From Cenococcum geophilum (taxonomy: Eukaryota): a stretch of DNA of 64,000 nt. This document shows, piece after piece, positions 3,200 to 61,994 of the stretch. The notes below the pieces were generated by a model. That model was given only the letters and a program-made list of their open reading frames with translations. It ran no database searches and had not been told where the DNA came from. Positions within the stretch are counted from its first letter, which is position 1; each line of letters opens with the position of its first letter. Made by a program: the position numbers and the translations under genes. The DNA lies in assembly GCA_050273025.1 (NCBI GenBank), contig CP158635.1, positions 2,418,001 through 2,482,000 of the forward strand, in the 5' to 3' direction.

Positions 3200-3620
3200 G
3201 TTACTATAGTGGCTACTATAATAGTAGAGACGCCTTAAATATTTAATGTAACTAATTACTAAGGCTGTTAATAAGTAAAAGGTAGGCTACTAATATGGTG
3301 CGAATAATATAGTTATTAATATCATTTATAGCCTATTTTTGCTTCTAGTGTACGCGTAAATAATCCTTATATTTGGCGTAGAGCTAGTTATAGGCAGTAA
3401 GCTAATTTAGGTCTAGCTTTACTATTAATATAGCTGTAGGTAATATATCCCTTAGTATAGGCCGACTTAGTAGTTCTAGCTTTAGAAGATTGTCTTTTTT
3501 CTTAGATAGGTTAATATACTGCTATACTTTATTAGTTTTAGCTATATCTTAGATAATAAAGAACTATTAAATCTAATCGGATAGCTTATTAAGGATAAGG
3601 TTAATTTTTAATTTAGTAGA
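3200..3620 (-). pseudogene. Degenerate ORF fragment, possibly a copia-type gag N-terminus
   Basis: Reads LNKLSD*I**FFII*DIAKTNKV*QYINLSK, which de-RIPs to LDKPSDWxxW...VWQYIDP; resembles fungal copia gag N-termini from memory. Confidence 0.35.
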
Positions 3621-5026
3621 GGTTATTATTTTTAAAATTTAATAGGTTAGGAAGAGTCCAGGTTAGGGTTTAGCTAGCATCTTAATAGAACCTTATTTAG
3701 ACGTTCCGAACTTTTAATTTAATTTATTAGTTTATTTATTAGTCGGATTTTGTTATAGGGAGCGCGATTAATAACCCCTACTAATAGCTTTAACCACGTC
3801 TAAATTTTAATTTATAAATAGGTAGATCTATAGGTAATAGTTATTTTAAGCAGCTCTAGGTGCGGTATATATAAAATCTTAACTATAGTATAGAGAAGTT
3901 GTGGCTGCTAATATGCGGTCCTAAGTAGCATATATTTTTAGAGGTTACGTAACTCCTTATATAAGCCACATTTCCGCCCTTTAAATTTTTTTTAAAAAAT
4001 TCCAAAAATTAATTAACGCTATAGATAGCATCAATATTAAACCGGCAAGACTGCTAATTCTTTTTATATACTATTATATGTATATCTAACAGCTCTAAAA
4101 GCGGTAAGAAGGTAGGACTGATAGAGGGGTTAAAATTTAGAAAATTAGATTTTGTGGTTAAGCTGTTTAAAACTTAGGAAACTAAGATAAATGCCGCATT
4201 CTCCGCTTACCTCTAAGCCAGTATATAATTTCCTAATTAGGAAAAGTCGTTTATAAGTAGTTACTACTGCCTCTATACAAAATCTTCTTATTATACCTCT
4301 TTAGTCTTACTTATAGATGACTAAAATTGTTCTATATTAAACCTATATTTAAATATAAGCCCTAAAAGCTTCTTAACTTATAAGATTGCTATATAGGTTA
4401 GCCTAGCTATCTTATCCTTTTCCTTAATATCTAGAACCATCTAGTTAAGTATTAGGCTTTAGCTTTTATATACGGTAAGAGCAAAAGCTAGAATAATTGG
4501 AAATTAACGCTGTAAGTAAGAGCCTCTTATACCCTCCTACTTATAAAGTACGGAAATATAGGGATAACTTTCTTACCATCCTACTAAGTAAATAGGGTAG
4601 GTCCGTTATACCCATTTACTATAATTAGTAGTAACTAAGGCTAATCCTTTTTAATATCCGCGTGTCCCTTCTATACAACATCTTTAACTATACTAGTAGT
4701 ACTGTTTACTAAGCCTAGTTTAACCTAGATATTCTATATTAGAATTACTTTCGCGCTAATATATAGGGCTAGATTCTCTATAGTATTATACTAATTAGGA
4801 GTAACTTTCCGTATACCTATACTAGTGTTAACTAACTTAATAGCTCCACTAGTTGTAAAAGGTTGCGAAGCTAAGTAGTGTTATACTTACCTATAGTAGC
4901 GCGTGTGCTATATAGCCGAATTGCGTTATTAAAGCCCGTAACCTTATTAGTAGATAAGCCCTACTTATACCTAGTTAAAAGAAGCTTCTAGGTTAGATTA
5001 TTTATAAAATCACTACGTAGCTTTAT

Positions 5027-5347
5027 CCCTTAACCCGCTGGCGTCCATCGAGTGTGTGGTCCGTGCGGAACACCAGAATTAGAAGTACGCGTATACCCTA
5101 CATAGATTTAATTAATACAATATCGTCAGCCATGCCTTCCAATCGTACTTCCAATGATATAGACCTTGTTCAGCCGACTCAATACAACGTTTAACTAAAT
5201 TGGGTCGCTAAAAACCTACCACCAGAGCCGTGGCTGCTGCCCGATTTTACAACGGCTACGTATTTCTAATCACGACGATTTAATTGCATTGATCTTATTG
5301 GTTGGTTCTTATCGATACCGAATGGACGAATTTCAGCGGGTTAAGGG
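5027..5347. mobile_element. 321-bp MITE with 14-bp TIRs (CCCTTAACCCGCTG), piggyBac-like CCCT...AGGG ends, apparent AT duplication
   Basis: Perfect TIRs at 5027-5040 and 5334-5347. Removing the element plus one AT restores the helicase frame (SSIFRTALIKLRSD). Interior shows little RIP. Confidence 0.85.
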
Positions 5348-5594
5348 ATAAGGGCGGTCCTAAATATAGAGCTCTTAGCGTTATTACCGCCCTACTATAT
5401 AACTTAATCTAAAACAGCTATTCGGTTAATCGCCTTATAAGCTCCCTTTCTATAGCTAGTAAGCTCTAATGGCCTAGCGGATAGATTGTTATATAAGGCC
5501 GCCTAACCTATAGGGGGAAGTTAATAGAAATCGCCTACTAGCAAGATGTTTAAGCCTCTAAAATAGTCGTTATTACGCGTAGGGTAGATCTAAC

Positions 5595-31560: not shown

Positions 31561-32640
31561 TTATTTATATTAATAGCCTTATTTATATAAAAGCAGACCC
31601 TTATATTACCCACTCCCGTATACACTAAATAGTAGGATTTTATAGTGTATGTTATCTTTCCTTAATCCCTCCGCTATAGCTCCTAAATAGCTAATATATC
31701 TAGCTAGGGGTCCGCCTACTCTACCTCTTATAAAAAGTAAAGCAGTACGCCGTTCCTACTATTATTAGTATTATACTATATAATTATAAATGTTTTCCAA
31801 TATCCTAATATAAGAGATCTATACTAGCCTCTAAGTTAGCTAAGTCTGTGCCCTTTAGTATCTATTTACTTCCTTATAACGCAGTTTTAGAGCCTCTAAA
31901 TGCCTCTCTCCAGATTTAGGCTTTTACTTCCACCTCTATATTAAACTTTATATTTAGTAGGGGCTCCTAGGTTACTAAGATTTAAATTAGGGCGTATATA
32001 CTACTATATAGTGCTATTTAAAGTATTAATTAAAGGGTCCTCTAACTTATTTCCTTTCTAAAATAATTAAAAGTCTATAGTGGCCAACCTTTTAGGGGGC
32101 TTCCTCTACCTATATAGAGCTCTCCCGTATAACTATCTCCGTTAGCTTCCTTTTCTTAGCTTATTACAAGGCCTCCTTAATAGTAATCTCGTACTATAAT
32201 TGTAATTGCTATCCGCTTATAGGTGCCTTATAGGTACCTACGTAGTATATTAACGTATAGGCCCTAATTGCTATAGCCTTTTCCTACTATGTCCGCTTAA
32301 CACTATACGCCCCATTCTATACCTTATAGTCTGCTTTATAGTTAATACACTTTTTAGGTAAATCTCCTATACATTCACTAGTGTTATATTACCTAGCGCA
32401 GAGTCCGCATCTAGCCTCTCTCCTATAGCTCTTAGCTATATAGTTAAAGCCTTAGCATTTAAAGCACTGCGTTACTAGAAACGTTGTCTCGTGCCTTATA
32501 ACTAGGTAGTAGTCTCCTCCTAGGAATAGACCCTAATTAAATAACGTATTTACTAACTCTTCTAACTGTATACCTATAATAAGTAATTAATTTCCTTATA
32601 GTCTTTAAATAAAAGCACCTTTAATTAGTGTAATTCTATA
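31561..32640 (-). mobile_element. Tad1-like LINE relic: ORF1 CCHC zinc knuckles and ORF2 AP-endonuclease N-terminus, split by element B (continues at ~18385-18463)
   Basis: QCFKC*GFNYIAKSY..RCGLCAR*YNTSEC (~32370-32480); II*YNTNNSR, LDILAI*EL*RR and RVCFYINK (~31570-31800). The frame continues across the CCTAC TSD as *APMHYLVDIYIIKL..IWIY. Confidence 0.8.
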
Positions 32641-32807
32641 GGATAAATGGTTTATTAAGTATATATAACCTTAGAAAATGGTTAAATAATTAAATAATTA
32701 ATAATTAAACAATTTATTATTATTTTCTTATATAAAACTAAATTATTTAGTAATAAAGCTTAACCATTATTCTTTAATGGTTATATAAGCCACTATATAA
32801 TTAAGTT

Positions 32808-32892
32808 GCCCGCGAAGCCCTACTGCACGCGTCCACGTCGCCGCGGGTGGAAACATCATCAGGAAATCGTTCCTTTTGATGGCTAAGTGCAG
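32808..32892 (+). ncRNA. HDV-like (nested double pseudoknot) self-cleaving ribozyme
   Basis: P1 GCCCGCG (32808-14)/CGCGGGU (32842-48, G1.U wobble); P2 CUGCAC (32823-28)/GUGCAG (32887-92); P3 GCG/CGC; L3 UCCACGU; P1.1 CC/GG (GG at 32849-50); P4 CAUCA..AGGAA-AUCG-UUCCU..UGAUG; J4/2 GCUAA with the catalytic-position C at 32883. Confidence 0.9.
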
Positions 32893-34247
32893 AGGCGATG
32901 GTAGAGAGCCGTCGCAGCGCATGCGACGCGCTGTGGTGTTGAGCTCGCGACGCGTACGAAGCATCGTACAAAGCATCGCCCTCGACAACACCAGGAGCCT
33001 CACTGCCTCCGCTTGAGGCTCCCGTTCTACCACCTAGGGAGGCCTATCAAGGGAAACTGGGATACGAAAACCACCCGACGTACGACTACCTAGCTCGTAG
33101 CTAGGGCCGAAACTGGTCTTATCAAGCCAGCGGATGCGGACGCGTCCTAGGCGTACGACAGGACACCCTTGGGCTTGCACTAGCTCTGAGACCGAGAGGA
33201 TACGGCGAGGGCGTAGGGAACCTCTTTTTATAAGAACTTGTTAAGGTTAACGCGTCGCAGATACTTCGTACGAAACTTGTTAAGGCCCCAAGGCCACCGC
33301 GAAGAACTTGTTAAGGCCCTGCCTAGAGAACTCGTTAAGGCCCCTCTACGAGGGCCTATCTGGTACATTCAGGAGACTCAGAAGAGGGTCTTAATAGGCG
33401 TGGTGCGCGCGACCTGGATGACGACTGCGACGCGACTGCGACGCGACGGCGACGCGACGGCAACCAGACGGCTCAACGAGGTGGAAACACGGGCAAAGCT
33501 CTAGGCAGCGGAAACACAGGCCAGCTTCGACGGCCCCATGGCGTCAAAGGCGACTCACAGGAGGGTCTTAATAGGCGTGGTGCACGCAACCTGATGCATA
33601 TACATATGGGGGAGGCTTTGGAGGAAACACAGGCCAGTCGGACGAGGACTCAACAGTTAGAGACACAGGCCAGCTTATAAAAAGGGGGGACACAAGCTTG
33701 GTTAGTAGAATAGGGTAGAGTAGATCGCCTGGCACGGGATCTAGTCTATAGCCCGTTCTGCAAGACACGGTCGGCCTGTCATGAGGAGACTCCTACAGGC
33801 AACGCGAAACGGGAACTGGCAGTATATAGGGTGTTGCGCCCCTATATTACTACTAGCCTCCCGCGGGGCGTAGTGCGTAGTAGCCACTGCTGGCTCTAGG
33901 GACCTCACCCCTTGACTGGGCTCTGACCCCTAGTGCACCTGGTAGGCAGGCAGGATCACGTCCTGGCCGGAGAGACTACTACGTGGCTCGAGAGAACGGA
34001 TGCGCGTGTCGGTACACCAACAGACGGAACCGTTCGCTAGGACGGCACGCCGGTGAGATGTGCTTAAGGAGCAAACAGGAGTTACCCAGGCGGGAGAGGT
34101 TTTTGGCCGGGCCTCAACCGTAGAAGGTGTGTGAGGTGTCCAATAGATGTGACGAAGCCACTGGAAAACTGGGGTAGAGGCCTGGATAAGCAGGCATGTC
34201 GAACTCTACTGTATTACTAGCACTACTAGCTAATATATAACTACCTG
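32808..34247 (+). repeat. Full-length GC-rich non-coding unit (~1.44 kb), copy 1
   Basis: Homologous to 34248-35611 and 60376-61064; no credible ORF; internal sub-repeats and hairpins; ends ...TAGCTAATATATAACTACCTG. Confidence 0.85.
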
Positions 34248-35611
34248 GCTTGCGACGCGTACCACCGTACAAGGCATCGCCCTCAACAACACCAGGAGCC
34301 TCACTGCCTCCGCATGAGGCTCTTGCCCTACCACCTAGGGAGGCCTATCAAGGGATACTGGGATACGAAAACCACCCGATGTACGACTACCTGGCTCGTA
34401 GCCAGGCCCGAAACTGGCCTTATCATCTAGTCAGTCGACGTGGACGCGTCCTAGTCGTACAACAGGACACCCTTGGGCTTGCACTAGCTCTGAGATCGCA
34501 AAGGGACGCGGCGAGGGCGTAGGGAACCTCTTTTTATAAGAACTTGTTAAGGTTAACGCGTCGCAGATACCTCGTACGAAACTTGTTAAGGCCCCAAGGC
34601 CACCGCGAAGAACTTGTTAAGGCCCTGCCTAGAGAACTCGTTAAGGCCCCTCTACGAGGGCCTATCTGGTATCCGGTACACTCAGGTGACTCAGAAGAGG
34701 GTCTTAATAGGCGTGGTGCGCGCGACCTGGAAGACAGCGACGCGGCGACGCGACAGCAACGCGACGGCGACGCGACGGCGACCAGACGGCTTAACGAGGT
34801 GGAAACACGGGCAAAGCTCTAGGCAGCGGAAACACAGGCCAGCTTCGACGGCCCCATGGCGTTCGACCAGGTGACTCACAGGAGGGTCTTAATAGGCGTG
34901 GTGCACGCAACCTGACGCATATGTATAAGGCGACTCACAGGAGGGTCTCAATAGGCGTGGTGCACGCAACCTAATACACACATATGGGGGAGGCTGTAGG
35001 GGAAACACAGGCCAGTCGGACGAGGTCTCGACAGTTAGAGACACAGGCCAGCTTATAGGAAGGGGGGACACAAGCTTGGTTAGTAGGAGAGGGGGAGTAG
35101 GTCGCCTGGCACGGGACCTAGTCTATGGCCCCCTCCTGCAAGACACGGTCGGCCTGTCATGAGGAGACTCTTACAGGCAACGCGAAACGGGAACTGGCAG
35201 TAGTATAGGGTGTTGCGCCCCTACACTACTACTAGCCTCCTGCGGGGCGTAGTACGTAGCAGCCACTGCTGGCTCTAAGGACCTCACCCCTTAGCTGGGC
35301 TCTGACCCTTAGTGCACCTGGTAGGCAGGCAGGATTACACCTGGCCGGAGAGACTGCTACGTAGCTCGAGAGAACGGATGCGCGTGTCGGTATATCAACA
35401 GACGGAACCGTTCGCCTCTAGGGCGGCACGCCGGTGAGATATGCTTAAGGAGCAAACAGGAGTTACTCAGGCGGGAGAGGTTTTGGCCCGGCCTTAACCG
35501 TAGAGGTGGTGACGCCCAAAGGTGGGAATAAGCCACTGAAAACTGGGGTAGAGGCCTGGATAAGCAGGCATGTCGAACTCTACTATATTATAGCTAATAT
35601 ATAACTACCTG
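34248..35611 (+). repeat. 5'-truncated copy 2 of the non-coding unit (lacks the ribozyme)
   Basis: Starts GCTTGCGACGCGTAC (equivalent to ~32943 in copy 1) and ends at the same ...ATATAACTACCTG terminus. Confidence 0.85.
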
Positions 35612-37913
35612 TCCAAATGAGGCCCTAAAAACCTGTGGGCCACTTATAGCACCTTGGCTTGCAGATGTAGCCAGAGCATGCTTTGCTATAGGCTACTACC
35701 CGCGACTCGGAAGATCTATGACGACGGTTGTCCTACGAAAAGAAGGCAAAGTAGATTACTCAATCCCAGGAAGCTACCGCCCTATTGCCTTAGAAAACAC
35801 CCTTAGCAAGATCTTAGAAAGGGTAATAGCGGAACACATGGCAGACACGGCAGAGGAACACGCCCTACTACCACAAAGCCAAATAGGGGCAAGAAAGAAC
35901 CGCTTAACACTATCAGCACTTACGCTACTCGCTGCCACCATTAAATCTGCATGGGCGATGCGAAAGGACTTTATAGTATTAATGCTTAGCCTAAACATCA
36001 GTGGTGCCTACGACAATATACCCTACGAGCGTCTCCTGCATATCCTTAGGGCAAAGGGCTTCCTAAAATAGATTATATAATTTATCCAAGGGTTTACAGG
36101 CCAGAAAGAAATATTACTGGTCTTCAGCGGATACCAGAGCCCCCCTATCGCAGTTATAATAGGAATACCATAAAAATCACCCCTCTCACCTATACTCTTC
36201 CTTTTCTTTATAAGCAACCTACTTAACTCCTTTAAGAAAGGGGCGACCCAGGGGATAGGCTTTATTAACGACACAAACCTAATTATATATGGGCCAACAG
36301 CCGTAAAGAATTGCAGAACACTAGAGAAAGCCTATAACACTTATATAGAATAGGCAAAACGTTATAAAGTCTAATTCTTATTAAAGAAATACCAACTAAT
36401 CTATTTCACAAGAAAACGCAACTAATCTGTAGATCTCTAATATATAATTCGCATCTAAGGCTTTAGGGGTTAACCAGTTCAGGGCCTAAGGGTATTAGAA
36501 GTATAGGTAGATAGCAAGCTCCGGTAGAGCGCATATGCGGCATAAGTAGCCCGTAAAGGCCAAGCACAGTTTATTGCTTTATCTAGGATTATCAACTCCA
36601 CATAGGGTCCATACTTCTAGAGGTCACGCCTACTATATACAGCAGTTATCCGGCCAACCATAATATATAGATCCAGTATTTGGGCCATTAAAGAAACTAA
36701 AAAGGGCCCCCCTAAATTACTCCTTAAACTACTTTAAAAGGTCCAGACAGCCTACCTTTAGAGTATTACAGGCGGGTATAAGCAAACGGCCACAGCACTA
36801 CTTAAGAAGGAATCTAATATTCCCCCCTTATAGTTATATATTAAAGCTGCTGTAATATAAAGGACGCAAAATAAACATAACTCTAATGTTATAAAGTATA
36901 TTAAGACACGCCTAAGTAAACTATAGAGGGACCCTAGGGTGCCCCGTAGGAGAACAAACCAACAACTCTAAAGTAGGAAAGAGATATTAGAGAAATAGGT
37001 AAAGAAAGTAAAAGAAGAATAGTGCCGCTTTAGGGCCCAGGCCTATATAGAGGAGAAAGGGAAACGCGTAAGAGGTTAGCAAAGATAACAGTAAGATAAA
37101 GAAAGGAGCTAAAGTAGAACATGTAAGAATGCCAGGAAACTATCTACCGTAATACAATACTGGTTGGACCAACGCTGGAGAGGTAAATAGGAGTCGAAGG
37201 TATAAAGGCTAACTTAGATAAGACAAACCTAAGCCATAGCATAGTTAACGCTATAGGGGGTAAATACCTAAGAGCTCCGAGAAGGCCTAATAAAGGCAGA
37301 AAACATAATAGTAACACTCTTAAGAACAGGAATAATAGGACTAAAAGATTGGCTTTACTAGGTAGGTATCCTAGTAGGTAGCCCGAGATGTAAATATAGC
37401 TAGCTAAAACAGACACCAAAACACGTAATACTGCTATACCCCCTACGCACTAATTAAGAAATAATACTCTTAGTAGCTAATATAGAGAACTATAATACAC
37501 TGCTCTTAATATAAAAAGGCCTTAAGGCGGTTACCTAGTGGCTTATTAGTTAAAATGTGCTAAATCAGTTCTGGGTTGCAAGAGAAATAGTAATAAAAGG
37601 TAAGGGGGCGAGCAGCAGGTGCCCCCTAGTAACTCTATAGTAGTAGAGTAATAGTTTATAATACTAGCGCGTTTATAGGCTTGTTACGGCAGCAGTGGTT
37701 CCTAAAAAGGTTAAACAGTAAGGTAGTAGAGCACCATAGGCGACTTATAGGCGCTAAGTAGGCGAGTCCTAAAAGGCGGGGAGATAGATCACGGGGTTTT
37801 CTCATTTTTCTTAAATAGAGTTTTCTCCCCATATGTAAATAAGGAGTAGTCCGCGTGGGCCTAATAGGGATCTAAATCGGACGTTAAGCAATGAATTATT
37901 ATTATTATTATTA
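35612..37913 (+). mobile_element. 5'-truncated Tad1-like LINE: RT, C-terminal zinc-knuckle region, 3' UTR, (ATT)n tail
   Basis: Begins mid-RT (PNEALKTCG...YRPIALENTLSKILE...LNISGAYDN; ORF 35718-36071), then GIP*KSPLSPILF, GFINDT and a C-terminal C..QTPKHV motif (~37390-37430). Confidence 0.92.
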
Positions 37914-38779
37914 ATATAATTAAGTTTTTATTAAAAAATAAATGATATAATATATAACTTGTTTTTCTACTACTTTATTTAATATAGTAACCCTTAAATC
38001 TATTATACTTTTCTTCTATAAAATTAAAGTATTAGGACTATATTTTAAAGTATTTTTTTAATAATATAGGCTTAATTTAGAAACATTATATTTTTAAATA
38101 ATAATATAAGGCCTAGAAAGAAAGTCTGAAAGCACAAATAATTAAACTTAAATAATATACCTTTAATATTTATTTGTAAAATCTATAAAAGGGCTTTATA
38201 TTTATATAGTTTAAAAATAAGGCTTTAATAAAGGCTATAGGTTTTAAATAAGCAAATAGCAATTAGTTTAATATTATAGATACCTTAAAAAAGCCATATA
38301 ATATATATTATATTATTTAAAGTCTCTGCACTAAGTATATACTTAATTAAAAGATTTATCTACTTTTATAAAAAGTAAGTTAATAACTTTAGCAACTTAC
38401 TATAAAGGCTATATATAAGGTCACTAAAATATACTACCTATAATCACAGCTTAAGGACCTTAAAGGCTTAAAAATTTATAAGTAGGTAGCAATAGATTTA
38501 GATATATAATTTATAAATTTAAATTTAAGTAAGTAAGTAAAAGAGGAGGTAGTAGGGAATAAAGGCTAAAATAAGGGTAAAAGAGCTAAAATCAAAGCCT
38601 TAAAAGGTGATAGATGGAAAGGCGAAGGTCGATATACTAAATAGCACGTAAGGGCAAATAATCAATTAAATTTAGTTAGGTGTAGTTGGCTTCTAAAGTA
38701 GTAGTGATTAATTTGGTAAGGTAACTAAGTTTAGGGGTTAACCGAGTTCTAGGGGTCCAAGCTTAGCTTATATTTACTA

Positions 38780-41973: not shown

Positions 41974-43167
41974 CTTTTATTATAAGGTCCGTAATAATAG
42001 CTACTTAGAACGGAACTTAAGGAGCTATAGGGGGTAATATAGGCTGTAATAAAACTTGTAGGACTATATAATAAGTACTAGGCGAGTTATATAATATTAT
42101 AAGCGAAGTCCACGAGGTATAACGTATATATATAAAATAAACTTAAAGGGATTTCCTAGGAGTTAGGAGTTATACTTAAAGATCTATAGTCCCTACCAGA
42201 TTTAGTTTACTCTTTATAGTAAATCTTAGAATTAATTAGAGTTAATTAATTAGGTACTTACTCTCTAGTTTAGCATAGTATATTTATTTCCTATATATTT
42301 AGCCTATTAATATAACTACCGTAGTATTTCCTATAAGCTATTGTTATACACAAGACCTTCTATATCCGATATAGATATTAATTATTAAAAAACTTCAAAT
42401 CGTAAAACGGGAGGCGAAGGAATGCGATAATAGCGATAACGACGATAATGGTAAGGAGCTTCTAGCTAAGGTTACTTATATATATAACTTTTATTAATAG
42501 TATTAACTTCCTTACCACCATATCTAAAGTAACGATAGACTGTTTAGCTACCTTTAGTAAGAGGAATTTAAACGTTGTAAGTGTATATAAGAGGACTATA
42601 GCTTTAAAATATACTACGGCGATAATAAGAAACATATTACTAAGGATATTAATAATAATCCTTTTGCTCCCTAACAAACGCGACTTAAGATAAGAGAGGC
42701 TTTAGAAACCATTAAGGATTAGTTTTACTAGATTAAGGAGAAGACCACTTAATTAGAGCCCGATATACGGGAGAAGTTAATAAACTAATAGCTATTAAAG
42801 CTCAATTAAGCCGCTAGTAAAGCGTGGCAATAGGACGTTAAGGAGTTTATTAAGGAAATCGGTAGGAATATACGAGTGAGCAATATAGAATACCAGAATA
42901 TCTGTATACAAACTGGATCTTATATATTAAAAGAACTTTATTTTTGACCATGCGCTGTGGATGTTAGGGAGATGGACGTGCAAAGCACGTTCTCCAATAA
43001 TTAGTATGGGCGTCCCATAGTAAACATCGGAGATGGAGCTTTCCGACACCACCGACGATGGCCCGCGCAGGCACTATTATGTAAGTAATACCGCTTAATC
43101 GAATTTTCGCAGCACTTTCGAGTCACTCTTTTCCTTACAAGCGCCCACACCTTCAACAATCTCTATC

Positions 43168-44625
43168 ATGGCTCCATCAACCCCTCCAATCGGCGGGATT
43201 GCTCAACTCGCTGTGGGTAAGCACCGAAAGTCCCTCAATCTTAGCAGAGCAGCTTCTACATACGATCCCATGAATGTACAAGATCCAATAAAGCCGGCAA
43301 TCCGCCAGCGCATCGCATCCCTTGAGAAGACCCATCAGGATTTTTTAGAAGAGGACAAGAAAAGAAAACGAGACATTTCGGACTCTTCAGTTGAGTCTAT
43401 TTGCGACCGTTACGTCAAACAGAAGCAGAGTAAAATAAGCCCCGATGCACTCGACAAGTTGTACATGGAGAAGATCCAGAGCCGTATTAGTGCCCGAATA
43501 CGCCTCACTGAGTCCCACCTGGGATACCGAAACCTCGAGCTGCAACATCTACTAGACGCCCGGAAGAGCGGTGCGTTAAAGTACCCTGAATTCGCCCAGA
43601 GTCGAGACCTTCTCGAGGGGCAAATCCGGCATATGCGCTTAGAACTAATAGGACTAAAGCGTCAAGAGGGCGTTCTTAGGGGCAAACTCTGGGATTCTCG
43701 TCATTTCATTCAAGAGCAAAACGATGTGGATGTGGCCGTGGATCAACTAATGGATAACATCATCCGCACATATAGTATTACTCCAGCAGCTCCGACTAGC
43801 TATCCGGAATACCACAAACCGCAGAACAAGCGCGACGGTCATCAGTCCCAGTTTAGACAAGCGCTGATCAAATTTTACAACGCTCCAGATCCTGATAATG
43901 CAACAGTCAGCGTACCGGATGACTATTGTTACTGGTGTCCTATCTCCCACCAATACTTTAGGAGCCAGTCTATAACAGCGGCACATATCGTGCCATTTGC
44001 TATCGGAGAAACCAATTGCAATTACCTCTTTCCTGACGACGATATGAGTCCAACAGGTCACCTTATGCATCCGGGAAATGGTCTCCTAATGCATTCTTCT
44101 CTCGAACAGGCTATGGACAAAGCACGCATCGCCATAGTTCCTGCCGATGAAATGAACCCGAGCGCACGCGATCTTAAGGTTGTGGTCTTTGATCGGACTA
44201 TTATTAAATCTAGGGATAGTGGCTTGGGCATTCCATGGGCTAAGCTTGATGGACTCCGATTAGAGTTTAAGAATGACAACCGGCCTAGACTCCGGTACCT
44301 CTACCTCACCTTCCTAATGAGCCTGTTTCGCCGCCGAAGATTTGAATGCACCGGTTGGAGGAGTGACTTGGCACGATATGCAAGTGGGAAAATGTGGGCT
44401 TCTCCTGGGAATTGGGTTCGGGGGTCGAGTATTAGAGTAATCGCACGTCGTGTTGCCTATGAAACTCATCTCGAAGCCTTCGTGGGTACTCACGACTTGC
44501 CGTTGCAACCAAGGACGATAGATGAACGAGATGATGAAGTTATGGCGGATGAGGTCATGGAATCGTATGAAGCCAAAGTTTTAGGAAGCTTGAAAGAGCA
44601 GGAAGTGAATGACGAGGAGGATTGA
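43168..44625 (+). CDS. Intact intronless 485-aa protein: N-terminal coiled coil + HNH-type (HNH_2-like) endonuclease domain + acidic tail
   Basis: Only long ORF in the window; normal GC and CpA content (no RIP). Motif WCPIS..ITAAHIVP...NGLLM..LEQAMD followed by L.F.ND.RPRLRYLY, typical of fungal HNH nuclease-domain proteins. Confidence 0.85.
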   Translation: MAPSTPPIGGIAQLAVGKHRKSLNLSRAASTYDPMNVQDPIKPAIRQRIASLEKTHQDFLEEDKKRKRDISDSSVESICDRYVKQKQSKISPDALDKLYMEKIQSRISARIRLTESHLGYRNLELQHLLDARKSGALKYPEFAQSRDLLEGQIRHMRLELIGLKRQEGVLRGKLWDSRHFIQEQNDVDVAVDQLMDNIIRTYSITPAAPTSYPEYHKPQNKRDGHQSQFRQALIKFYNAPDPDNATVSVPDDYCYWCPISHQYFRSQSITAAHIVPFAIGETNCNYLFPDDDMSPTGHLMHPGNGLLMHSSLEQAMDKARIAIVPADEMNPSARDLKVVVFDRTIIKSRDSGLGIPWAKLDGLRLEFKNDNRPRLRYLYLTFLMSLFRRRRFECTGWRSDLARYASGKMWASPGNWVRGSSIRVIARRVAYETHLEAFVGTHDLPLQPRTIDERDDEVMADEVMESYEAKVLGSLKEQEVNDEED

Positions 44626-60375: not shown

Positions 60376-60461
60376 GCCCACAAAGCCCTACTGCACGCGT
60401 CCACGTCGCCGCGGGTGGAAACATCATCAGGAAATCGTTTTCTTTTGATGGCCAAGTGCAG
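60376..60461 (+). ncRNA. Second HDV-like ribozyme copy (P1 5' strand damaged: GCCCACA)
   Basis: P2, P3, L3, P1.1 and the P1 3' strand are identical to 32808-32892; two G->A changes in P1; J4/2 is GCCAA. Confidence 0.8.
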
Positions 60462-61064
60462 AGGCGATGGTAGGGAGCCGTCGCAGCGCGTGCAGCACGC
60501 TGTCGTCGCGGTTCTGTGGTGTTGAGCTCGCGACGCGTACTATCGTACAAAGCATCGCCCTTAACAACACCAGGAGCCTTACTGCCTCCGCTTAAGGCTT
60601 CTGCTCTACCACCTAGGGAGGCCTATCAAGGGATACTAGGATACGAAAACCACCTAATATACGACTACCTGGCTTATAGCTAGGCCCGAAACTGGCCTTA
60701 TTATTAGCTAGTTAACGTGGACGCGCCCTAGTCATACAACAGGACACCCTTAGGCTTGCACCAGCTCTGAGATCGTAAGACGAGGGCGTAGGGAAACCCT
60801 TTTTTATAAGAACTTGTTAAGGTTAACGCGTCGTAGATACCTCGTATAAAACTTATTAAGGCCCCTAAAGCCACCGCGAAGAACTTGTTAAGGCCCTACC
60901 TAGAGAACTCGTTAAGGCCCCTCTACGAGAGCCTATCCGGTACATCCAGGAGACTTAGAAGAGGGTCTTAATAGGCGTGGTGCGCGCGACCTGGATGAGA
61001 CAGTGACGCGACAGCGACGCGACGGCGACGCGACGGCGACCAGATGGCTCGACGAGGTGGAAAC
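60376..61064 (+). repeat. 3'-interrupted copy 3 of the ribozyme-headed non-coding unit
   Basis: Homology to copy 1 starts at the ribozyme G1 and stops after GAGGTGGAAAC. Confidence 0.85.
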
Positions 61065-61994
61065 GAGTCTGAAGCTCGGAGAGTGTAGCCGAAAGCTCCG
61101 GGAGTGTTCAAATACGCCACGTCGCAAAATCTTACACTTGATGAACTTTAGCCCTGTGCGCGCACACCTAATGAGCTTTTAATACAAAATTCTTCAAAAT
61201 TATCGCGATTAATATATTAAAGCTACACATCATCATATAATATTGCAACCATACTCTATCTTTGGCGTATTTAAGATCGTGCAAATCTTAGCATTAAAAA
61301 TGGCTAATAATACGTAAGTATCCCGAAGTGCGTAAAGATATATCTAGGATAGATTAATAATGTATCTAGGATATAATCTAGGTACCCTTACGCACCTACC
61401 TATCTTAGGTAGTTCTTCTATACTACTGCTAATAGAAGAAACTTAGCCCTTAATTAAAGACTTAGAATAATTACGGGAGGACTTCTTCTATAAAGGGTAA
61501 TGGGTGTAGGAGGAACGCATATATATAAATATTAAAGATAGTAATTAGGATATATCCGGCTTATATTAGGAGTACCACGAAGATATTTAATCCTAAATGC
61601 CTATACTATAACAATCTGCCAATGCCTCTTCTTTAACGATAGTAGTAAGTAGAATTATATAACGCGAGCTATATATAATATATAAACTAATTATCTCTAT
61701 AATATAGCCAGGCTTAATATTAATTACACAAACTAGATCGCTTATAGTAGAAAGACTTATATTTAGTTAAGAGATACTAAAATATCCTGTGTCCTCTAAG
61801 CACAGAATTAAATATATTATAGATTTATCTAGCCTATAGCTAAATAATAAGAATATTATAAAGATGTACAAAAATATAAGATACTATATCCTAGATAGAT
61901 CCTATATATAACTTAGCTCTAATATAGATAGATATAATACTTATATATATTAAAGAACAAAATAAGTATAATATACCCTCTTCTTGGCCTCTAA

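Follow-up and report, generated by a model that had tools for sequence, protein, structure and literature searches.

The closest described counterparts of the locus treated here are the MINE elements of Magnaporthe, for which the original account gives 31 elements combining a full-length copy of the 1.1-kb non-coding sequence WEIRD with fragments of 230-5461 nt of MGL, a long interspersed nuclear element (LINE) (Gogvadze et al., 2007, PMC2104539). According to that account the elements are flanked by 10-20-bp repeats, no solo WEIRD gene was found, and one tripartite chimera with 14-bp repeats, composed of WEIRD, Mg-SINE (a short interspersed nuclear element, SINE) and MGL, was taken as proof of a double template switch (PMC2104539). 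Here we describe a comparable locus in a 64,000-nt stretch of Cenococcum geophilum DNA (assembly GCA_050273025.1, contig CP158635.1, forward-strand positions 2,418,001 to 2,482,000), which is called the window in the following and in whose coordinates positions are given unless a locus is named. The block 32808-37913 of the window is most probably a chimeric retro-copy in three parts, for which the reverse transcriptase (RT) of an endonuclease-plus-RT LINE switched templates onto a passenger RNA with a predicted ribozyme of the hepatitis delta virus (HDV) type at its head.

HDV-like ribozymes are characterised by a nested double pseudoknot, a G1-U wobble closing helix P1 and a C in the joiner J4/2, and they cut at their own 5' edge. 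Such ribozymes stand at the 5' end of R2, RTE, L1Tc/NARTc and other retrotransposons without long terminal repeats (LTRs); there the copy begins at G1, and the ribozyme presumably serves to cut the RNA free from co-transcripts upstream. A different precedent is provided by the U6-L1 and other small nuclear RNA (snRNA)-L1 chimeric retrogenes of mammals, which, as reported by Buzdin and co-workers, arise when the LINE RT switches to the exact 3' end of the snRNA. The retrozymes of de la Pena and co-workers are said to carry hammerhead ribozymes, to have an LTR-type or tandem organisation and to give circular RNAs.

The elements of the MINE study and the window insertion agree in several respects. 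Both begin on the 5' side with the copy of a non-coding RNA of ~1.1-1.4 kb, the 3' end of which is fused to variously truncated LINEs; target duplications surround the whole chimera, and both systems include a double-switch product with a 13-14-bp repeat; junction microhomology was seen in neither; and the partner RNA is met mostly or only inside chimeras.

Materials and Methods

The window consists of AT-rich fungal repeat DNA with degradation of the type caused by repeat-induced point mutation (RIP). Its GC content is mostly 0.25-0.38, and the interval 33-36 kb forms an island of 57% GC. Related DNA was obtained as 75 loci (L001-L075; 1,017,408 nt) from two metagenome assemblies, which were fetched with P0001, the protein encoded by open reading frame 2 (ORF2) of the LINE. 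These loci share the repeat families of the window and its RIP-type decay, and together with the window they made up the 1,081,408 nt searched.

The unit copies were delimited by a BLAST comparison of the window with itself and a three-way alignment, and a nine-copy alignment was used for their relatedness. The least-mutated LINE copy, that of L001, served as the LINE reference (L001:2169-7608). A sensitive Rfam scan covered 32500-35900. The HDV-type nested double pseudoknot (helices P1, P1.1, P2, P3 and P4; 27 pairs) was written by hand and its pairs were counted in the four copies that extend to the unit 5' end.

Results

One Insertion With a LINE Tail

The features of the locus are listed in Table 1. 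The perfect 13-bp duplication that brackets the 5.1-kb block occurs in the window solely at 32795 and 37914; of 8000 random control positions, 2 had their 13-mer repeated within an 80-nt zone at the same spacing. In a diverged paralogue of the flanking repeat (L057, 8090-8240) the two flanks are contiguous around a single copy of the duplicated sequence, with neither units nor LINE between them, which makes it an empty site. Because of the duplication and this empty site, the block is taken to have entered as a single piece: unit, truncated unit, truncated LINE and tail are one insertion, made by target-primed reverse transcription.

Table 1. Coordinates in the window of the chimeric insertion, its target-site duplications and the unit copies.
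Feature	Position	Strand	Remarks
Left target-site duplication, 13 bp	32795..32807	+	ATATAATTAAGTT; directly precedes G1 of unit copy 1
HDV-like self-cleaving ribozyme (predicted)	32808..32900	+	the insertion begins with its G1 (32808)
Unit copy 1	32808..34247	+	full-length, 1440 nt, non-coding; ends ...ACTACCTG
Unit copy 2	34248..35611	+	5'-truncated, begins at unit position 136; 3' terminus as in copy 1
LINE, 5'-truncated, RIP-mutated	35612..37894	+	LINE reference 3272-5412; runs to the LINE 3' end (...CGGACGTTAAGCAATGA)
LINE tail, (ATT)6A	37895..37913	+	
Right target-site duplication	37914..37926	+	ATATAATTAAGTT; directly after the tail
Unit copy 3	60376..61064	+	unit 1-681, begins at ribozyme G1; RIP-hit; followed by an unrelated repeat

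The LINE part is recognised by a match to the RT domain RVT_1 (35598-36068, E 3.8e-10), and its RT fragment is 89% identical to the intact 1026-aa protein P0001, which carries endonuclease domains (PF03372, PF14529) besides RVT_1. The composite ends in a complete LINE 3' untranslated region (UTR) and tail; other LINE copies have (ATT)n or (ATA)n at the tail position. A whole chimera enclosed by one target-site duplication and closed by the LINE 3' tail is found in the window and again in L051.

In the interval 35612-37760, changes of the RIP type (C>T and G>A relative to L001) have altered only 7-11% of C/G over the 400 nt adjoining the unit, but 22-30% farther on. While the attached LINE part is heavily mutated, there is hardly any RIP in the two units joined to it (GC 0.57). 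The start of this gradient at the homology boundary suggests that RIP acted in place after the insertion, when there were few partners for the unit.

Two Distinct Unit Copies With a Common Terminus

Both unit copies of the insertion end in the 21-mer TAGCTAATATATAACTACCTG (34227-34247 and 35591-35611), which has no further occurrence in the window at up to three mismatches; the two matches compare with 0.05 expected, and two or more were obtained in 0 of 100 shuffles. Copy 1 directly abuts the truncated copy 2, and copy 2 directly abuts LINE ORF2 sequence at 35612. A previous sequence-only reading of the window had proposed such a common terminus, joined in one copy to a 5'-truncated unit and in the other to LINE sequence from the middle of the RT, and both proposals hold, the LINE joining just upstream of the RT domain.

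The same reading had described internal differences between the copies, including indels, and these are real: over 1282 aligned columns the copies differ by 92 substitutions (67 transitions and 25 transversions), to which are added 16 indel events of 1-57 nt, mostly not multiples of three. No stop-free frame of more than 113 aa overlaps the two copies. The extra sub-repeat that had been ascribed to copy 2 (~50 bp, 34930-34975) is present as well, as 57 nt at ~34931-34987 with no equivalent in copy 1, but it is not a gain of copy 2. It also occurs in three other copies (L051, L045a and L040), and since it is therefore the common state of the family, copy 1 is the copy that lacks it. The number of these ~57-nt sub-repeats, like that of the 12-nt GTCGACTYACAG repeats, varies among unit copies.

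The juxtaposition of a full and a truncated copy could also have arisen if a bipartite chimera of unit and truncated LINE had inserted first and unit positions 136-1440 had later been duplicated in tandem at the DNA level. Such a duplication would yield the observed order, and copies 1 and 2 do show the fewest transition differences of any pair, as a recent common origin would predict; we attribute this to their being the copies least hit by RIP. Once the RIP-prone transitions are set aside, the two copies are not nearest relatives. In columns 151-716 of the nine-copy alignment they differ by 12 transversions, the largest number of any pair (3-9 in the others), and in columns 919-1460 they are no closer than other pairs, with six transversions between them and five between copy 2 and the L040 copy. 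At the 23 transversion differences in this alignment, other copies share the state of copy 2 alone at 13 and that of copy 1 alone at 4, and both states occur among other copies at the remaining 6. The family is also polymorphic for the indels at columns 409, 573, 1157, 1370 and 1436, with both states in other copies. A duplication breakpoint would moreover need to coincide precisely with the final base of the unit, and the order of a full followed by a truncated copy recurs in L045 with the same terminal G and another truncation point. Given the transversion and indel pattern, the exact breakpoint needed and the recurrence in L045, we regard a local duplication as quite improbable.

A Predicted HDV-Like Ribozyme at the 5' End

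Two Rfam models matched 32806-32899 over their whole length, namely RF02682 (HDV-F-prausnitzii; 31.8 bits, cut-off 44, E 0.0027) and RF00094 (HDV_ribozyme; 30.9 bits, cut-off 50, E 0.082). No Rfam family reached its gathering score anywhere in the window. Within 32500-35900 a second ribozyme was not found at E values up to 10, and other ribozyme families and RNA genes gave weak, chance-level matches only.

The segment was assigned to the HDV-like class by its structure, which has the double pseudoknot, the G1-U wobble and the C in J4/2. Over the 27 pairs and four copies 94.4% of the cells were paired, compared with 34-55% when the partners were slid by 1-3 columns. In the alignment reading, copy 1 forms 27 of 27 standard pairs, with a G1-U41 wobble and a candidate catalytic C76, at position 32883, in the joiner GGCUAAG; the C in this joiner corresponds in place to the catalytic C of HDV-like ribozymes. 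Three compensatory pairs were seen, one each in P2, P3 and P4, and two P1 pairs of copy 3 are broken by G-to-A changes. Plain minimum free energy folding was uninformative (z -1.02), as expected because of the pseudoknot. A covariance model of the ribozyme, R1, matched its four training copies alone in the 1,081,408 nt. Of the copies that extend into the 5' region, four of four have ribozyme G1 as their first base, and in three of them the target duplication abuts this G1. A literature search (titles and abstract openings) found no report of HDV-like ribozymes in fungal retrotransposons.

A Constant Unit End Joined to Varied Partners

Beyond the window, unit copies were found in L019, L040, L045, L051 and L066, and a 40-nt 3' fragment in L047. 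Seven unit 3' regions were available for comparison, and six of them end in ACTACCT followed by one base (G in five, A in L051). Five end in ACTACCTG (window copies 1 and 2, L066, L045a and L047); the L051 unit ends in ACTACCTA, its terminal A being a G-to-A change that fits the RIP decay of that copy. The seventh region, L045b, is short by about 9 nt, and it seems to be the priming member of its chain and not a jump acceptor. The 3' ends are thus not heterogeneous. Within the last ~120 nt lies a conserved terminal stem, followed by an A/T-rich single-stranded tail of variable length that always ends in CCTG; a poly(A) at the unit 3' end was found in none of the copies. The stem, seen at 34183-34247 and 35556-35611 and in L051, L066 and L045, is of 7 bp (GGTAGAG/CTCTACT) and encloses a hairpin (GCCTG-GATAAG-CAGGC). 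Two forms make up the family, a long one with ~330 additional nt ahead of the terminal stem-loop and a short one, to which the window copies and L051 belong (loci concerned: L045:718-2577 (-), L066:7259-8215 (-), L040:16082-17042).

The constant, complete 3' end is followed in the same orientation by LINE copies truncated at varying positions, or by other sequence. In L051 a full unit precedes the LINE from reference position 381 to the tail, and the whole is flanked by the 13-bp duplication ACTATATAGCGGA, one copy abutting G1 and the other following the tail (control 0/48,188). In L066 the unit is followed by the LINE from position 5099. The L045 locus lacks a LINE part and has a full unit joined at ACTACCTG to the 3'-terminal ~395 nt of a long-form unit, the pair being flanked by the 9-bp repeat ATTAGTATA (control 27/75,527 in a 20-nt zone). 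At L047:8210-8281 the last 40 nt of the unit (ACTACCTG) are followed by 35 unassigned nt and then by the exact 5' end of a full-length LINE, an arrangement that may reflect a jump after read-through of the donor flank. Every junction seen is different (unit 136, LINE 3272, LINE 381, LINE 5099, the ~395-nt unit end, and 35 nt plus LINE). No junction microhomology was seen at these sites, and the terminal G of the unit is not supplied by the downstream partner. Copies that meet ordinary flanking DNA on their 5' side (L019, L040 and L066) are truncated at different points, as is the case for LINE-type insertions. The three LINE exit positions 3272, 381 and 5099 all begin with CCC in the RNA sense, which may be chance at n=3.

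The constant end could in principle be a preferred DNA target, behind which, with a unit already resident, two serial insertions took place, first of a site-specific LINE and then of a truncated unit. Many full-length LINEs indeed share an upstream flank ...GAACTTT or ...GACTTT, and the unit does end in a conserved stem-loop followed by a tail. In the window, L051 and L045, however, the duplications bracket the whole composites and not the LINE part alone, and the empty site in L057 lacks the units and the LINE together, so that serial insertion is very hard to credit. The flank itself, ...CCTAG(C/T)ATAGAACTTT or ...AAGAAGACTTT, stands directly before TGGAGCTC in many full-length LINE copies of L001-L075. 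This would agree with a target preference, or else with an element that is longer by a few bases.

The sequence-only reading had also suggested that the fixed 3' end may be a product of processing, in which each monomer of a tandem precursor is cut off by the ribozyme that follows it. Both ends of the unit would then be ribozyme-made, from a head-to-tail multimeric or rolling-circle precursor and perhaps via a circle. A fixed, non-polyadenylated 3' end together with a ribozyme-defined 5' end is what such a precursor would leave. This idea has so far gained no support: RIP-tolerant patterns for ...ACTACCTG followed within 10 nt by the first strand of the ribozyme found no array on either strand of the 1.08 Mb, and the unit-to-unit junctions all lead into 5'-truncated copies without a ribozyme. 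A precursor in which ACTACCT is joined directly to GCCCGCG would in addition place the terminal G downstream, whereas at six of six ends the unit retains this base (A in L051); a junction with two Gs would reconcile such an array with this finding. We consider a tandem precursor unlikely. A retrozyme-like tandem element was rejected as a class for the unit, as the 1.08 Mb (both strands) held no array and 32500-35900 no flanking ribozyme.

The Unit Is Independent of the LINE

The partner is independent of the LINE as far as sequence comparison goes: the LINE has another 5' UTR, the two show no similarity, and the two-unit insertion of L045 is free of LINE sequence. Of the BLAST hits, 42 begin at L001 2169-2171, the standard LINE 5' end (TGGAGCTCTTGC...), without a unit. 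The standard 5' UTR is a different sequence of 380 nt that starts with TGGAGCTCTTGCTGCACC, and no HDV-like match was found in it at E values up to 10. Similarity between unit and LINE was not significant (best match 11 nt, E 1.7), and their termini differ, the unit ending ...AACTACCTG and the LINE ...AAGCAATGA(ATT)n. A SINE-type partner sharing the LINE 3' tail was rejected on account of the differing termini and the lack of 3'-terminal homology.

Since HDV-like ribozymes head several LINE families, the unit might instead be an alternative LINE 5' UTR of the monomer type, as in mouse L1, with an internal deletion in the window copy. The position of the L051 unit, directly upstream of ORF1 and in the same orientation, would agree with this. 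The LINE part of L051 begins at 381, however, without most of the standard 380-nt 5' UTR; the 42 hits mentioned above begin at the standard 5' end without a unit; the unit end is constant but the LINE position joined to it varies (381, 3272 and 5099); and the L045 units have no LINE part at all. The chance that the unit is such a 5' UTR appears very slight. A monomer array serving as LINE 5' UTR was rejected, as full-length LINEs have another 5' UTR and R1 finds no ribozyme there.

A 12-nt motif, GG(C/T)GACT(C/T)(A/G)CA(G/A), occurs in the unit sub-repeats (33548-33560 and 34870-34940) and, in one or two tandem copies, in the LINE 3' UTR (L001 reference 5397; L019), with 30 matches when both strands are counted (2.03 Mb). 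It is not statistically significant and may reflect chance or a protein-binding site common to both; an 11/12 match between sequences of 1.4 kb and 5.5 kb is, by estimate, expected by chance, and for this reason nothing further is made of it.

Other Features of the Window

Unit copy 3 carries 35 private changes, 28 of them C>T or G>A. The repeat that cuts it off at position 681 (61065-61994) is also present at L072:17620-18540 and L031:5567-6344, and in L072 it follows unrelated sequence that is not RIPped. An unbroken frame of 508 codons at 43099-44625 (+) encodes an HNH_2 endonuclease domain (PF13391, E 2.4e-08) and lies in a GC-richer island (0.44-0.49) amid RIP-degraded DNA.

Discussion

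Proposed Mechanism

The duplication, the empty site and the other loci support a double template jump of the kind proposed in the sequence-only reading, in which the RT passes from LINE RNA onto the 3' end of a unit RNA and from there onto that of a different family member. In our scheme target-primed reverse transcription would start on the LINE RNA and copy its last 2.3 kb. The RT would then leave the LINE in mid-ORF2 and continue precisely from the 3' end (...ACUACCUG) of another molecule, the non-coding unit RNA of 1.44 kb, leave this RNA in turn at position 136, take up a second unit RNA of different sequence at its 3' end, and run to the 5' end of the latter, that is G1, the end that self-cleavage would leave. 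The ribozyme presumably frees the 5' end of the unit RNA from read-through transcripts. We infer from the arrangement of the copies that the unit corresponds to a ribozyme-headed, non-polyadenylated passenger RNA that would reach DNA via the LINE machinery, usually as a template-switch acceptor; in L045 it seems to have been the primed template itself, with a start a few bases inside its end.

The two jumps need not have taken place in this very insertion. The composite could be a retro-copy of the transcript of an older chimeric master, cut at its 5' end by the unit ribozyme and recognised via the LINE 3' end, with the jumps one or more generations earlier. The copy 1 ribozyme is intact and the LINE 3' UTR and tail are complete, so that such a transcript would be a competent template, and the target duplication and the empty site fit equally well. 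MINE chimeras of Magnaporthe are transcribed (PMC2104539). Neither window junction recurs in other unit copies of the 1.02 Mb, which speaks against a master, although this sample is small and LINE-biased. We give re-copying a minor share of the probability.

Several points weigh against the interpretation preferred here, that of template switches onto a ribozyme-headed passenger RNA in the making of this insertion. The evidence fits both jumps within this insertion and the re-copying of an older chimera, and does not separate them. The unit RNA, its ends and the activity of its ribozyme are deduced from DNA. By score the ribozyme is no member of either Rfam family, as it lies below both gathering cut-offs, and its covariation support is weak, because the three compensatory pairs are all due to L045a, a RIP-hit copy, and were equalled in 28 of 500 shuffles. 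The low number of transitions between copies 1 and 2 would equally follow from a recent common origin. No target duplication was recognisable for the L066 chimera or at L047. Unit copies close to LINEs are over-sampled, since the loci were fetched via the LINE ORF2. Finally, units with little RIP beside a heavily hit LINE part need the extra assumption that few unit partners were present when RIP acted.

Comparison With Known Systems

Like U6-L1, the window chimera combines a non-polyadenylated partner with a constant partner 3' end, a variable LINE truncation and a target duplication around the chimera. Its partner differs from the snRNA in its length of 1.44 kb and in having no known cellular role, in being polymorphic (sub-families, long and short forms) and in its ribozyme-defined 5' end. 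In R2, RTE and L1Tc the ribozyme is part of the autonomous LINE itself or of a deletion derivative, whereas here ~50 full-length LINE copies are without a ribozyme, which instead heads an unrelated passenger RNA lacking LINE homology. The unit resembles retrozymes as a non-coding, ribozyme-bearing RNA that depends on the enzymes of retrotransposons for its DNA copies; it differs from them by a single HDV-like ribozyme at the 5' end, by LINE-type insertions and by the lack of head-to-tail arrays in the 1.08 Mb.

Compared with MINE, both jumps here land on one RNA family (unit-unit-LINE), 5'-truncated partner copies and a LINE-free two-unit insertion (L045) occur, and the LINE family and its (ATT)n tail are different. 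The LINE donor sites here begin with CCC (3/3), and the consensus published for MGL is GCC*A/U (PMC2104539). The partner here is headed by an HDV-like ribozyme; in the text of PMC2104539 the word 'ribozyme' does not appear. With a SINE such as Mg-SINE, mobilised by MGL in the same account (PMC2104539), the unit has in common that a non-coding RNA is mobilised in trans by a LINE; here no 3' tail is shared.

It is tempting to see in the unit a distinct non-autonomous class, a self-sustaining ribozyme-headed hitchhiker with neither a LINE-like tail nor coding capacity, and in WEIRD another of the same kind, but we think this less likely than not. Equally speculative is the accompanying idea that its DNA copies arise solely when a ribozyme-less LINE picks up the RNA by template switching or occasionally uses it as primed template. 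The boldest form of this idea would have the fixed 3' end made by self-processing as well, from a multimeric or circular precursor RNA.

Significance

The template-switch event is of a known kind, with MINE/WEIRD as its closest precedent; the ribozyme-headed passenger RNA is new. What LINE RTs do at the ends of their templates is recorded in nature mainly by template-switch chimeras, and the window locus is a clean case, with a three-part product, a perfect duplication, an empty site and two distinguishable acceptors of one RNA family. The finding extends HDV-like ribozymes, as predicted here, to a fungal retroelement whose LINE is itself without one. The ribozyme head also offers an answer to the question raised in Magnaporthe, where the origin of WEIRD has been open since 2005-2007, of how a partner RNA can be supplied without a solo gene: because the ribozyme would trim the 5' end, any full-length copy could be a source, and any such copy downstream of a promoter could give a correctly trimmed RNA.

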